Positions 303-10,473 are shown, counted from the first letter of the stretch. The stretch: 23,091 nt of DNA from Acutalibacteraceae bacterium (GCA_045540315.1 JAZQHA010000108.1:1-23091); one strand, 5' to 3'. Notes: generated by a model not told the origin, from the sequence alone. A program made the numbers and translations.

Positions 303-331
303 ATTATAACATATTTTTATAAAAAAATCAA
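303..331 (-). promoter_or_regulatory. Early promoter copy P1 (minus strand reads TTGATT-N17-TATAAT)
   Basis: rc of 303-331 = TTGATT + 17 nt + TATAAT; followed by conserved ATATATATAAAGTTAAGGAGG leader into gene 18..275. Confidence 0.6.
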
Positions 332-363
332 TAAAGCCTCGACTCGCTAGGAATCGAGGCTTT
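330..363 (-). terminator. Rho-independent terminator after gene 368..715
   Basis: GCCTCGA...TCGAGGC 7-bp stem (336-360) followed on minus strand by TTTATTGATTTTTTT. Confidence 0.6.
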
Positions 364-367
364 ATAA

Positions 368-715
368 TTACATCAAATCAACTTCATATTGAGCATAGTC
401 TTTGAATTCCATGTTTTCAACATAGTCATCGACAGTTTCATCATCAGCCTTGCGACTTCTAACCCAATCCCAAAAATGATTATCATAGCATTCTGGCATG
501 GATTTAAGTGCTTCATAAAGAGAATCTCCATACCAAGACCAGTTGTCAACACCACCTGCATCTAGTGCCATTAATTTCATCTGGTCTGCAATAAGGTCAA
601 TCATTTCACTTACTGGAACAGCAATATATTCCTCTTCTGGTTTAGGGTCAGAAAGAAAACGAATTTTGCACATAGGTTCAATTTCGCCAATAAAACTATC
701 TTCAGTGTGTTCCAT
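368..715 (-). CDS. Hypothetical acidic protein (115 aa, Asp/Glu-rich)
   Basis: ORF, GGAG RBS upstream of ATG 715, TAA stop; no family recognised. Confidence 0.5.
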   Translation of the reverse strand: MEHTEDSFIGEIEPMCKIRFLSDPKPEEEYIAVPVSEMIDLIADQMKLMALDAGGVDNWSWYGDSLYEALKSMPECYDNHFWDWVRSRKADDETVDDYVENMEFKDYAQYEVDLM

Positions 716-732
716 AATTACTCCTTATTATT

Positions 733-1137
733 CTAATAATTAGTCCACATATCATTTAAGACTTGGTTAGCAACCTTCATATCAAAATGCTTAGCCTTAC
801 AATCCGGCATTAAAGATTTCATAAAAGCACCTTTATTATTGGTAGGAATTGTCAAATCTTGAGTAATCCAATAACTAATAGCTTCCTTAATTTCATTATA
901 GTCACTTACAACTTTTGGAGCATACTCTTCAACAATTGCTAACTTAGTTTGATATTCAGTAAGTTTAGTTGCATACTGTTCGGTCTTAGGACAAGTATCA
1001 ACCATTTCTTGAACTGTCTTTTTATATTTAATTAAAACTTCATCGACCATCTGGTCAGTAATCATACTTCTAGATTTAGCACTAATAGATGCTTTTTCAA
1101 TAGAAGCACAAATATCTGAAAGAACCAGACGTCTCAT
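733..1137 (-). CDS. Hypothetical protein (134 aa). Possible N-terminal extension to ATG at 1189 through an in-frame TAG at 1147-1149
   Basis: ORF ends at TAG, with TAA 5 codons further on. An upstream in-frame ATG (1187-1189) has a strong AAGGAG RBS, whereas the annotated ATG at 1137 has no clear SD. Confidence 0.5.
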   Translation of the reverse strand: MRRLVLSDICASIEKASISAKSRSMITDQMVDEVLIKYKKTVQEMVDTCPKTEQYATKLTEYQTKLAIVEEYAPKVVSDYNEIKEAISYWITQDLTIPTNNKGAFMKSLMPDCKAKHFDMKVANQVLNDMWTNY

Positions 1138-1210
1138 TTTGTCGCCCTACTTTAAGGCGACATTACTATCTTCCTTAATTTTTTCGTAGGTCATTTTATT
1201 CTCCTTAATT

Positions 1211-7781: not shown

Positions 7782-7805
7782 TTCCTTTCTTAACTTTCTA
7801 TAAAT

Positions 7806-7834
7806 ATTATAACATATTTTTTAATAAAAATCAA
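7806..7834 (-). promoter_or_regulatory. Early promoter copy P4 (TTGATT-N17-TATAAT)
   Basis: rc = TTGATT + tttattaaaaaatatgt + TATAAT; ATTTATAGAAAGTTAAGAAAGG leader into gene 7482..7781. Confidence 0.6.
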
Positions 7835-7860
7835 AGGGGAGGTTTTACCCTCCCCTTAAT
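7834..7860 (-). terminator. Rho-independent terminator after MVP-homolog gene
   Basis: AAGGGGAGG/CCTCCCCTT 9-bp stem with 6-nt loop, followed on minus strand by TTTGATTTTTATT. Confidence 0.65.
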
Positions 7861-7870
7861 CTCTTATTAT

Positions 7871-10399
7871 TTAGCCCTTAGTGCCGAGATTGCTAACAAT
7901 CTCATTCACATCGAAAGGTAGGCCATTAATCAACTTCTGAGTAACCTCAGCAATGCTTTCACCCTTAGCCAGAGCATAGGGGCTCATGTGCTTTGCCAGA
8001 GTCTGAGTCAGTTCAGCCTTGCTGCCTGCGGAGATAGCAGCAATCAGGTCCTCGCTGATAGAACCCATGATAGTGGCTACAGTTGCGGCATAAGCCTCAT
8101 TCTTAGCCTTCTCAATGTCAGCCAGTTCCTTCTCATGAGCAACACGCTGTGCCTGCTCCTGAGCTTCATGTGCCAGAGTCTGCTGGAATTCAGCTTCCTT
8201 GCGAGCACGACCAGCTTCCGCAATTGCATCAACCAAAGCCTGCATATCCTTTTCAGCTTGCTTTGCGGCAAGCTTTTCAGCCTCATTTTGACGGTTAATC
8301 TTAGCCTGGATTGCCAACTTCTGGACTGCTTCAGCTTCCTGGAGTTCCATCTTATTCCGCAGTTCCAGAGATTTCAGTTCAGCCATTGCCTTCTCAGAAA
8401 CAGCCATTGCCGCAGCAACTTCAGCTTCCTTATTAGCGCTTGCCAGTTCCAGATTCTTGCGGACGGTATCATGCTGATGCTTAATCAGCAGCTTTTCGAT
8501 AGCATCCTCAACAGAGCAGCTCAGCACTTCGCAATCATGAACGTACATACCATTCTCGGGGAAGAACAGACCTTCGTGATAACCACCAGTGCCAGCACCA
8601 TCGGGGTTAACCTTAACGTAATCAATAGCTACGTTACGAACAATTTCGTTGTAATTGTTCCAGAACTCTTCAATGGTGTATTCCTTAGCAGCACGCTTAA
8701 TCAGTGCACGCTCTCTATCACACATATACTTGACGTAATTCTCAACAGAGAACCACTTATCCTGGAATGCGGGGTCAAAGTCAACGCAATAGCTAACCTT
8801 AACAGTAGCTCTTACAAAGTCCTTAGTTTCAATATTAATAAGGTCAGAAACCTTATTATTCTCATGACGCAGGAAGACAGTCTTAATCAGATTATCAGTA
8901 GTCTTAGGACGTCCAGTGGACAGTTCCAGAACTTCCAGAGTCTGGTCATAATCCAGCAGAATGGTCTGAGGACCACGGACAATCTTGCGAGTGCCATCCT
9001 TGGAAATTACATTAACTGCATAACCAGTCCAAACGTCGATAGAAACAACGCCCTCAAACTTGTTATCCAGAGTAATAGTACGGGGCTTGGTGTAAGAAGT
9101 ACCGCGGGAAATGTTAGCCTTAGCTTCCAGATTTGCCAGAGTAGAATCCATGGAAGTCAGTGCGCTGAACGCAAACATATCCAAGTCTACATCGCCCTTC
9201 TTTAGACTCTTTTCGACAGCCTTTTCAGATAGATTAATATTATATGCCAGAGCATCTGCGTTGCCAGGATACCACAGACGGCACTGCTTTTCGCTCAGCT
9301 TACGCTTAACGACGACCTCAGTGCGGGGGTCGGGCAAATACATAGCAGGACCCTTGATGGTATTAATTTCACCGGTCAGTCGGTTCATAATATAGCGACC
9401 TTCGCCTTCGGGAATGGCAATGGCGTGATGCATCATCTTATTATCATAGTTGATAACTGCGTGTTCAGGACGAGGATAGTAAATCATCTGGTCGTTGCCA
9501 GTAATAAACAGCTCTTCACCGATAGGATGAGTAACTTCCTTACCTTCCTTATCAACATCCTTATACTCAGCGATTACCTTAACGTAAATACCGCTGATGG
9601 GAGACAGCTCGATAGCACGGAAGACAAAACCCTTCTTGGGGGAAGTAACGAAGGTCTCAGTGGGCTCAGGGAACACCACTTCGGGACCATGAACATAACG
9701 CTTATTACCGTCTTCGTCCTTCAGAATACAATACTCCAGACGCTCCAGAGTAACTGCTTCGCGCACATAACCCTTGTGAGGGTCATTATCGACCGCAATT
9801 ACCTCAATACCGGTAGGGGGAATGTAGAAGGAAACCTCAGTGCCCTTAATGACCAGAATCTGACCATTTACATAAGTATTATTCTTTCCTTCGATTGCCT
9901 TACCTTCGGCATCCAGCATTTCGCCCTTATTGCGGGAAGCAGCTTCTGCTTCGTACACACGAGCCAGCAGATACTGGTTGGTACGCAGAGAGTGACCACG
10001 AATAACCTTAGCCATCTGGCCGGGGAACAGAGAGAAGGAGACAGGGCCACGAATATTAACCTTCTGACCGATATTCAGTGCAGGTGCAATCATAGACTTA
10101 CCCATTTCAGGATAAGTACCATTCTCAGTAGGATTCTTCAGAATCACATACCAGTTTTCGGGGGCATTGATAAACAGCTGCTTTGCGTTATCGCTGTTGG
10201 GGATTTCCTTAAACTTCTTAGTCTTGGAATCAAAGACTACCAGAGCTTCCTGTTGAGAAATAGTAGTCATCAGAGGACCGGTACAGGTCTTAATAACACC
10301 ATTAGTCTTACTCTGAAGCAGACAGAACTCATTCGGTGCAAGCACCAAGTCCTTCTGTCGCATAGAGCCGCCATTTTCATATCTATCATCGTATGCCAT
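7871..10399 (-). CDS. Major vault protein (MVP) homolog, 842 aa
   Basis: N-terminal DLVLAPNEFCLLQSKTNGVIKTCTGP resembles MVP repeat 1 ([26 protein letters not shown]). LELSTGRPKTTDN...LINIETKDFVRATVKVSYCVDFD matches the MVP repeat-9/shoulder junction (LSLSAGRPKRPHA...[23 protein letters not shown]). A C-terminal ~150-aa Ala/Glu/Gln-rich coiled coil corresponds to the cap-helix. Length is close to eukaryotic MVP (about 860-890 aa). Confidence 0.75.
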   Translation of the reverse strand: MAYDDRYENGGSMRQKDLVLAPNEFCLLQSKTNGVIKTCTGPLMTTISQQEALVVFDSKTKKFKEIPNSDNAKQLFINAPENWYVILKNPTENGTYPEMGKSMIAPALNIGQKVNIRGPVSFSLFPGQMAKVIRGHSLRTNQYLLARVYEAEAASRNKGEMLDAEGKAIEGKNNTYVNGQILVIKGTEVSFYIPPTGIEVIAVDNDPHKGYVREAVTLERLEYCILKDEDGNKRYVHGPEVVFPEPTETFVTSPKKGFVFRAIELSPISGIYVKVIAEYKDVDKEGKEVTHPIGEELFITGNDQMIYYPRPEHAVINYDNKMMHHAIAIPEGEGRYIMNRLTGEINTIKGPAMYLPDPRTEVVVKRKLSEKQCRLWYPGNADALAYNINLSEKAVEKSLKKGDVDLDMFAFSALTSMDSTLANLEAKANISRGTSYTKPRTITLDNKFEGVVSIDVWTGYAVNVISKDGTRKIVRGPQTILLDYDQTLEVLELSTGRPKTTDNLIKTVFLRHENNKVSDLINIETKDFVRATVKVSYCVDFDPAFQDKWFSVENYVKYMCDRERALIKRAAKEYTIEEFWNNYNEIVRNVAIDYVKVNPDGAGTGGYHEGLFFPENGMYVHDCEVLSCSVEDAIEKLLIKHQHDTVRKNLELASANKEAEVAAAMAVSEKAMAELKSLELRNKMELQEAEAVQKLAIQAKINRQNEAEKLAAKQAEKDMQALVDAIAEAGRARKEAEFQQTLAHEAQEQAQRVAHEKELADIEKAKNEAYAATVATIMGSISEDLIAAISAGSKAELTQTLAKHMSPYALAKGESIAEVTQKLINGLPFDVNEIVSNLGTKG

Positions 10400-10444
10400 A
10401 TTATTTTCCTTTCATTTATTATCTTTTCTTAACTTTCTATATAT

Positions 10445-10473
10445 ATTATATAATATTTTTTTATAAAAATCAA
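10445..10473 (-). promoter_or_regulatory. Early promoter copy P5 (TTGATT-N17-TATAAT) driving the MVP-homolog gene
   Basis: rc = TTGATT + tttataaaaaaatatta + TATAAT; ATATATAGAAAGTTAAG leader. Confidence 0.6.

Follow-up and report, generated by a model that had tools for sequence, protein, structure and literature searches.

Terminator-linked cassettes as probable host-read early promoters in a TAG-recoded phage and its uncultivated relatives

The DNA stretch described here comprises 23,091 nucleotides deposited under the name Acutalibacteraceae bacterium (GCA_045540315.1, JAZQHA010000108.1:1-23091). It is referred to as the window in its full length and has a G+C content of 36%. Its minus strand carries five copies of a near-identical unit of 55-60 nt, here called the cassette. 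These cassettes are probably early promoters for the primary sigma factor of the host, combined with insulating terminators. Measured from the start of the -35 element to the end of the -10 element, the copies are located at 331..303, 2661..2633, 4043..4015, 7834..7806, and 10473..10445. An earlier annotation made from the bare sequence (the sequence-only reading) had placed cassettes at exactly these five sites, and all of them were recovered. Each copy is intergenic and points in the same direction as the open reading frame (ORF) behind it. The remaining 12.6 kb of the window is free of cassettes.

A 31-nt pattern, TTGATTTTTWTWWAAAWATATKWTATAATAT, was built column by column from the five window cassettes. 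This pattern matches the window five times without a mismatch, and the same five sites are the only ones returned when three mismatches are allowed. No sixth copy was found in the window on either strand with up to seven substitutions. Furthermore, 100 dinucleotide-preserving shuffles of the window yielded no match to the pattern, which rules out chance or low sequence complexity as the source of the cassettes.

In a promoter scan, all five copies were recognised as TTGATT, 17 nt, and TATAAT with a score of 10/12, and TG precedes the -10 element in four of them. The -10 hexamer TATAAT matches the consensus at six of six positions, with a spacing of exactly 17 bp in every copy. The -35 hexamer TTGATT agrees with TTGACA at only four of six positions, although the critical TTG is kept; the description of these promoters as a perfect consensus therefore went too far. 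The spacer length of 17 nt was described correctly, but its supposed pure A/T composition was not, as four copies contain a G. This G, located at -14, creates TATGt, which is both a TGn extended -10 element and a TRTG or "-16" motif. The copy at 10473 has TATTa. In Gram-positive bacteria, sigma-A promoters typically have such a TRTG motif in the -16 region (Voskuil & Chambliss 1998; Helmann 1995). The base located 7 nt past the -10 element is A in all five copies and represents the predicted +1, so that the discriminator consists of the six bases separating this A from the -10 element (ATATAT, ATTTAT, or ATATTT). The leaders that follow are purine-rich and carry AAGGAGG, AAAGGA, or GAGGGA. According to the same textbook sources, AGAAAGGA(GG) is complementary to the 3'-terminal sequence of 16S rRNA in Firmicutes. 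With folding energies of 0 to -0.5 kcal/mol, the leaders show no RNA structure. Searches of the window for Rfam families and for tRNAs gave no match.

The five copies, all on the minus strand, are named P1 to P5 in the direction of transcription. P1 (core 10443..10473) consists of TTGATT at 10473-10468, the 17-nt spacer, TATAAT at 10450-10445, and AT; it lacks a hairpin and lies in a divergent intergenic region. Its predicted +1 is A 10438, followed by a leader of 39 nt up to the ATG at 10399. P2 (7804..7834) has a TGn extended -10 element, a predicted +1 at A 7799, and a leader of 18 nt ending at ATG 7781. In P3 (4013..4043), the predicted +1 is A 4008, and 20 nt separate it from ATG 3988. 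P4 (2631..2661), which has no upstream hairpin, is predicted to start at A 2626 with a leader of 27 nt to ATG 2599. For P5 (301..331), the corresponding positions are A 296 and ATG 275 with a leader of 21 nt. The 31-mers of P3 and P5 are identical.

The sequence-only reading proposed that the conserved region from +1 to +20 could serve as an operator for a dedicated regulator, with the neighbouring MarR-like winged helix-turn-helix (wHTH) protein of 99 aa encoded at 7482-7781 as the candidate, or that it could act as an RNA element. The region is indeed conserved in the five copies, and the MarR-like gene (27.5 bits against a cut-off of 27) leads the second transcription unit. However, the unstructured leaders and the lack of an Rfam match in the window speak against an RNA element. 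Past +4, only about 0.5 bit of conservation is left at each position, in purine-rich sequence of the Shine-Dalgarno (SD) type. Homologues of the wHTH protein, with 34-40% identity, were detected in only 3 of about 200 cassette loci, so that the protein is not co-conserved with the cassette. An operator or RNA element at this position is thus very improbable. What had been seen as a conserved stretch beginning at +1 starts later than assumed: it resolves into the 6-nt discriminator, the A at the predicted start, and the purine-rich SD leader. The conservation beyond the hexamers does not call for a regulator, as it maps to the U-tract of the terminator, the TRTG or extended -10 motif, the A/T discriminator, the purine start, and the extended SD. 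Each conserved position of the cassette coincides with a known transcription or translation signal.

Stable GC-rich hairpins followed by a U-run, the hallmark of intrinsic terminators, are present on the minus strand at 365-331, 4076-4046, and 7857-7834. T1 (7834..7857) has the structure AAGGGGAGG-gtaaaa-CCTCCCCTT and a folding energy of -19.2 kcal/mol (z -4.1); its T-run is at the same time the TTGATTTTT of the next promoter. T2 (4046..4076) consists of a 14-bp stem followed by TTTTTGATTTTTTT (-19.3 kcal/mol, z -6.0), and T3 (331..365) has a 15-bp stem reaching into the TTGATT of P5 (-22.1 kcal/mol, z -7.3). None of these energies was matched by any shuffle, and the 3' T-run of each hairpin merges into TTGATTTTT. 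The sequence-only reading had noted three copies preceded by such a hairpin and U-run, which agrees with the energies of -19 to -22 kcal/mol. P4 (at 2661) and P1 (at 10473) lack a hairpin, and the energies in front of them (-3.8 and -3.1 kcal/mol, respectively) resemble those of shuffles. The overlap of the terminator U-tract with the -35 element offers an explanation for the T-rich TTGATTTTT in place of TTGACA. This explanation is only partial, since the hairpin-less copies keep TTGATTTTT as well.

The cassette is widespread among uncultivated phages. In IMG/VR, TTGATTTTTWTWWAAAWATATKWTATAATAT is present in at least 120 stretches, originating from at least 92 distinct contigs among the matches listed and mostly 100-400 kb in size. 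In the GTDB genome set of 185,579 species representatives, it occurs in 81 stretches of 64 contigs and in no isolate genome. All 81 matches belong to a metagenome-assembled genome (MAG) or an uncultured bin from animal or human gut, and their taxonomic labels are inconsistent, which indicates that they are mis-binned phage contigs. For the same reasons, a copied host chromosomal promoter is ruled out as the origin of the cassette. The GTDB contigs (L121-L201) include multi-cassette phage contigs of 140-400 kb, and the bin labels comprise Clostridia and Bacilli (most), Treponema, Methanobrevibacter, Alistipes, Saccharibacteria, and Succinivibrio. Many of the cassette-bearing loci have genes in common with the window. 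The nearest relative of the window, JAXJVZ010000292.1, shares 80% nucleotide identity and carries eight cassettes on one strand within 21 kb. Among deposited phages, a megablast search with the whole window gave no match. A blastn search with the consensus cassette returned only matches of 74-82% over 50-65 nt and no genome with the same cassette. These matches belong to phage phAss-1, an unverified faecal contig, and 949-type lactococcal, Listeria, Enterococcus, and Bacillus phages.

Related loci yielded 491 distinct copies of the cassette. These copies, with up to five mismatches, were collected from 1.5 Mb of loci on about 156 uncultivated gut and rumen phage contigs and combined into a family profile whose flanks lay outside the search pattern. 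Conservation in the family spans from -5 (CTTTT, the end of the hairpin with the T-run) to +4. The ATATAT discriminator is conserved to 70-98% per position, with 70-91% for the ATAT that lies downstream of the search pattern, the predicted +1 is a purine in 97% of the copies, K follows at +2, and AA at +3/+4 is found in 92-94%. Past +4, the information drops to the level of about 0.5 bit per position already mentioned, with an A/G-rich composition and at most 3% C. The upstream half was counted in 362 copies anchored solely on the -10 element and the start region. In this set, TTGATT is located at exactly 17 nt in 302 copies and TTGACA in 5, and 94% of the copies have TTGA. The family spacer follows the scheme T5-7, W3, A5-7, TATG, in which the G of TATG is present in 72-74% of the copies. 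The junction between the T-tract and the A-tract slides among copies (T5-ATA-A7, T7-ATA-A5, or T5-ATT-A6). This suggests that the spacer is under a structural requirement rather than being read base by base by a protein.

The combination with terminators extends to the family. A hairpin of -8 kcal/mol or lower adjoins the -35 element in 40% of the copies, and hairpins of -12 kcal/mol or lower were found in 173 copies compared with 6 in shuffled controls. Where the hairpin is missing, AAAAAAATCTT is found upstream instead and is reminiscent of a proximal UP element. The distance from the predicted +1 to an SD-preceded start codon shows a sharp peak at 25-30 nt with a median of 27. The cassette is located directly upstream of a homologue of the major vault protein (MVP) in 8 of 8 loci and of a nicotinamidase homologue in 7 of 11, ending 4-39 nt before the start.

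From these sequence features, it is inferred that the cassettes act as promoters and terminators, are recognised by sigma-A of the host, and are used early. In the proposed mechanism, the RNA polymerase (RNAP) of a Gram-positive host with its primary, sigma-A-type factor would read each cassette as a compact expression unit. An optional GC-rich hairpin with a U-tract extending into the -35 element would serve as an intrinsic terminator and insulate the unit from upstream transcription. It would be followed by the -35 element TTGATT, a 17-bp spacer of T-tract, A-tract, and TATG, the -10 element TATAAT, the ATATAT discriminator, and a purine start 7 nt further on. The transcript would begin with a cytosine-free, unstructured leader (18-39 nt here) containing AAGAAAGGA, which can pair with the 3' end of 16S rRNA in Firmicutes, ahead of the start codon. 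In this way, the five copies would create five units of standard-code non-structural genes that could be transcribed without any phage-made protein, i.e., early. Spill-over would be limited by the three terminators, with none at the P3/P4 junction. The same cassette would serve a whole clade of large TAG-recoded phages from gut and rumen, all uncultivated, and would also drive tRNA arrays with amber suppressors.

A comparable design is known from T4-type phages. The promoter-early stem-loops (PeSLs) of phages RB49/phi1, PST, and nt-1 (Arbiol et al. 2010, PMC2839356; Comeau et al. 2014, PMC4122927) were experimentally shown to have both promoter and terminator activity (PMC2839356). Like the cassettes, they are repeated, near-identical intergenic composites of stop codon, A/T region, sigma-70-type promoter, terminator stem-loop, SD, and start codon. 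Both elements are found among variable, ORFan-rich non-structural genes and insulate small units. They differ in the location of the stem-loop, which is always directly upstream of and fused to the -35 element in the cassette, whereas in PeSLs it mostly lies between or over the hexamers. In addition, PeSLs belong to T4-type myoviruses of Gram-negative hosts, whereas the cassette phage is TAG-recoded and probably has a Firmicute host. The cassette is, by this comparison, an analogue of the PeSL and not a homologue.

The PeSL analogy leads to another explanation for the likeness of the copies, in which the units are homology patches for the insertion, deletion, and exchange of modules between co-infecting phages, and exchange keeps them alike. 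A role in recombination and mini-circle formation has been shown for PeSLs (PMC2839356, PMC4122927). Consistent with such a role, the genes between cassettes vary strongly and include many ORFans, and homology blocks shared with relatives stop at cassettes (e.g., 7864-10486, 3236-4046, and 2385-2661). The adjacency of the MVP-like gene and the next gene, the one testable cassette boundary, is kept in none of 10 relatives, with few homologues available. Between loci of at least 88% identity, 17% of the breakpoints are no more than 40 nt away from a cassette, compared with 4% for random positions. This enrichment disappears, however, when gene boundaries are compared: breakpoints occur at 9 of 36 boundaries with a cassette and at 33 of 179 without one (25% vs 18%, p = 0.36). 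Adjacency inside the units is also poorly kept. Identity over 45 positions is 82.7% within a locus and 79.7% between loci, and this slight excess of 3% corresponds to 10 standard deviations of label permutation. The identity between loci almost equals that within them, which points to a constraint common to all these phages, and not homogenisation, as the main source of the likeness. Recent intragenomic spread or concerted evolution as its main cause is ruled out by these values, and the earlier idea of the cassette spreading as a unit is not borne out. A function as recombination linkers is thus conceivable but unlikely.

For the cassettes as early promoters read by the host polymerase, the distribution of in-frame TAG codons is informative. 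Three tail-collar-like paralogues keep their motifs in frame over TAGs (PAN*FGGTWE*IKDRF, PAALFGGTWI*IENRF, and PAYLFGGTWERIDDKF), which indicates that TAG is a sense codon in this phage (code 15). Under this code, 15287-15649 joins on to 16702 (+), and a gene starting at 18735 (+) behind a strong SD runs across two TAGs to 19946. Moreover, three minus-strand ORFs open in 20745-23089, at 20745-21257, 21258-21794, and 22436-23089. When the recoded late ORFs were compared with the collected loci of relatives, which are biased to early regions, no matches were obtained. On the cassette side of the window, 19 of 19 genes are open in the standard code, and the late tail genes carry in-frame TAG. 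In the collected loci, an internal TAG is present in 9 of 192 ORFs starting up to 120 nt from a cassette, compared with 303 of 1218 others (odds ratio 0.15, p = 2e-12). In-frame recoded stops are considered a mark of late genes (PMC10607447). The depletion of TAG near cassettes therefore supports expression before, or independent of, suppression.

Cassettes are also found at the head of tRNA arrays. Of 458 tRNAs in 55 loci, 24 begin within 60 nt of a cassette, and suppressor tRNAs with the anticodon CUA are present in at least 11 of the collected loci. Several arrays, in L066, L108, L071, L050, L051, and L124, contain a non-coding leader with the motif ACAGCAAWT (e.g., GGCTCATACAGCAAAT) behind the cassette. 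At Rfam gathering thresholds, these leaders gave tRNA matches only, and they could represent a pre-tRNA leader or a small RNA.

Several observations weigh against cassettes that are nothing more than early promoters selected for sigma-A strength. With regard to timing, ORFs with an internal TAG are as frequent within 3 kb downstream of cassettes as elsewhere. An amber-suppressor tRNA(CUA) is located 25-95 nt downstream of a cassette on the minus strands of L124 (about 4855-5050), L157 (about 5956-6150), and L197 (about 2708-2770), so that the code-switching tRNA would be expressed from this strong promoter class, like the standard-code genes. The term "early only" may thus be too narrow, and the cassettes may simply be strong constitutive promoters. 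The safest wording from sequence features of this kind is a putative strong promoter for non-structural genes and tRNAs. With regard to sigma-A, the occurrence of TTGATT in 83% of copies, compared with about 1% for TTGACA, is odd for pure selection on promoter strength. Likewise, spacer and discriminator are near-invariant in phages whose shared proteins are just 35-80% identical, which is more than a generic sigma-A promoter needs.

The points on sequence invariance would be accommodated if the promoters carried a class mark. In that case, a phage factor (a sigma factor, a virion-delivered or early RNAP-binding protein, or an RNAP-modifying enzyme) would read positions outside the hexamer consensus, i.e., the TTGATT variant, the T-tract/A-tract spacer, and ATATAT. 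Such a factor would tell phage promoters from those of the host or close the class at the early-to-late switch. The near-invariance across 491 copies, the rarity of TTGACA, and the absence of the cassette from isolate genomes in the GTDB set fit this explanation, and phage T5 offers a precedent. T5 is a large lytic phage with sigma-70-dependent early promoters read by the host RNAP, and its promoters of the P_N25 type reportedly show extended homology (Gentz & Bujard 1985). As in the cassettes, T5 early promoters are conserved not only in the hexamers but also in the spacer, the discriminator, and the initial transcribed region, and the discriminators ATATT (T5) and ATATAT (cassettes) are nearly the same. 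The early promoters of T5 all share the ATATT discriminator, and gpT5.026 weakens the contact between RNAP and discriminator, thereby shifting the balance of early and late transcription (PMC7472727). Differences are the TTGCTT-type -35 element and the Escherichia coli host of T5, as well as the temporal class, which was measured in T5 and is deduced for the cassettes. No counterpart of gpT5.026 was identified for the cassette phage.

On the other side, every conserved block is a known contact element of sigma-A and RNAP or a terminator U-tract, and the sliding junction of the T-tract and the A-tract suits a structural requirement better than a class mark. Unrelated cultured Firmicute phages have similar promoters. 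No RNAP or sigma factor was seen among the window proteins, although the clade was not surveyed systematically for phage sigma factors or proteins binding RNAP. None is mentioned for phAss-1 either, whose sole "polymerase" is DNA polymerase III alpha (PMC10607447). By analogy with T5, a class-specific regulator acting on the discriminator is possible, but class-marked promoters as the explanation for the cassettes are improbable. Still less probable is the extended version, in which a phage RNAP-binding or RNAP-modifying factor reads the mark and its switching times the change from the standard code to TAG as glutamine in the clade. Since the amber-suppressor tRNA of relatives lies behind the same cassette, a switch of this promoter class would, if the promoters were class-marked, be a transcriptional lever timing the change of the genetic code.

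The interpretation as host-read early promoters with terminators is in line with further Gram-positive phages. The host-takeover module of Bacillus phage SPO1 reportedly consists of short operons, each with its own strong sigma-A early promoter and strong SD, and with terminators between them (Stewart et al. 1998). The cassette region resembles this module as a run of terminator-separated short operons in a Gram-positive phage. The gene content of the SPO1 module is unrelated, and the module lies in the terminal redundancy. For its later classes, SPO1 encodes sigma factors of its own, and the window showed nothing of this kind.

A variant cassette is found in phAss-1 (OQ749652), a distant relative assigned to the "Caudoviricetes code 15 clade" that also has a suppressor tRNA (PMC10607447). 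It has the order hairpin, TTTTT, TTGACA, 17 nt (ending in TATGG), TATAAT, and ATATATAGAAAATGAGAAAAGGAG, and is located ahead of genes for nicotinamidase, phosphoribosyl pyrophosphate (PRPP) synthetase, and NAMPT. The cultured Lactococcus phage WRP3 (KM677185) has TTGACT, 17 nt (ending in TATGG), TATAAT, and ATATAAT...AAGGAG. The architecture of both elements is that of the cassettes, but the sequences of the -35 element and the spacer differ from TTGATT with T-tract and A-tract. The phAss-1 paper never mentions promoters (PMC10607447), and neither the phAss-1 nor the WRP3 element is described as repeated. A search of the literature for this particular motif found no description. Since the design is already known from the PeSLs of T4-type phages, T5, and SPO1, the understanding of phage transcription remains unchanged. 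Extra ideas beyond the promoter and terminator reading are largely not needed.

The cassette is of practical use in several respects. The 31-nt pattern provides a sequence handle for TAG-recoded phages of gut and rumen that form a large clade without cultivated members. It also flags their contigs where these were wrongly binned into MAGs under names such as Treponema, Methanobrevibacter, and Bacteroidales. For genomes made up mostly of ORFans, the pattern marks unit boundaries and probable early genes, and shows which genes lie right behind a strong promoter, including a full-length homologue of a vault protein. The Firmicute-type signals, TRTG and a long SD, argue for Bacillota hosts. Furthermore, the cassettes may be ready-made strong promoter and ribosome-binding-site parts for Gram-positive anaerobes.

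The minus strand from 10399 down to 18 contains non-structural genes including many ORFans, and tail-fibre-like genes are encoded on the plus strand from 10625. The cassettes define the units 10438-7871, 7799-4065, 4008-2668, 2626-368, and 296 to past the window edge, with hairpin terminators behind units 1, 2, and 4. That cassettes with terminators partition the early region into operons was the central claim of the sequence-only reading, and it gains support from the predicted anatomy and the comparative conservation. Unit 3 has no terminator behind it at the P3/P4 junction, so that read-through into unit 4 is expected.

All units are encoded on the minus strand. Unit 1 (7871..10399) consists of a single gene encoding an 842-aa homologue of the eukaryotic MVP, with Pfam matches to MVP_shoulder (9e-19) and Vault_3 (2e-9). 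The protein aligns over residues 331-761 with MVP chains in the PDB such as 7pkz (E = 3e-18; 842 vs 861 aa). Its homologues in eight related loci, each directly behind a cassette, share 63-83% amino acid identity, and further homologues with 42% identity occur in the huge phages LR756500, LR756501, and LR756503. Unit 2 (4065..7781) includes the MarR-like wHTH gene at 7482-7781, an ORF at 7129-7488, cREC_REC at 6747-7163, small ORFans, a nucleotidyltransferase at 4372-5187, and an ORF at 4065-4424. The cREC_REC protein is a cyclic-phosphate processing receiver protein. Unit 3 (2668..3988) encodes a metallophosphoesterase (3125-3988) and two small ORFs. Unit 4 (368..2599) contains genes for a nicotinamidase/isochorismatase (2006-2599), a PRPP synthetase (1211-1993), a YqeY/GatB-like protein (733-1137), and a protein with a T7 gp5.9-like RecBCD inhibitor domain (368-715). 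PRPP synthetase and nicotinamidase represent nicotinamide adenine dinucleotide salvage, and the gene cluster behind the cassette variant in phAss-1 is equivalent. Unit 5 comprises the ORF at 18-275 behind P5 and continues past the window edge.

No distinct late-promoter motif was found in the window, where late contexts consist of a hairpin and a TATAAAGGAGG ribosome site. Late genes lack the cassette and share a hairpin and then (A)TATAAA(A)GGAGG before the start, as seen at 15215-15286, 17170-17204, and 18680-18734 on the plus strand and at 20721-20745 on the minus strand. This motif is too near the start codon for a promoter and is probably the context of a ribosome site. A weaker half-cassette at 10526..10553 on the plus strand, TTGATTTTTTT... 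with a 16-nt spacer and TAAAAT, is a speculative candidate for the promoter of the tail-fibre genes. Between the convergent modules, a perfect hairpin at 19958-20005 is flanked by an A-run and a T-run (AAAAAAAAATGGAGAGACTT...AAGTCTCTCCATTTTTTTT) and looks like a bidirectional terminator.

Four IMG/VR loci (L001, L036, L041, and L105) have the identical 31-mer with different flanks, namely TAAAAAAAGAC... downstream and a missing CTTTT upstream, and are possibly a separate phage group with the same core. The cassette-bearing contig L108, which is 402 kb in size, encodes a ROOL RNA at 7982-8394 (-) with 263 bits, cut by the end of the locus. At 2050-2137 (-), the same contig shows a partial OLE-like match of 53 bits against a cut-off of 50.

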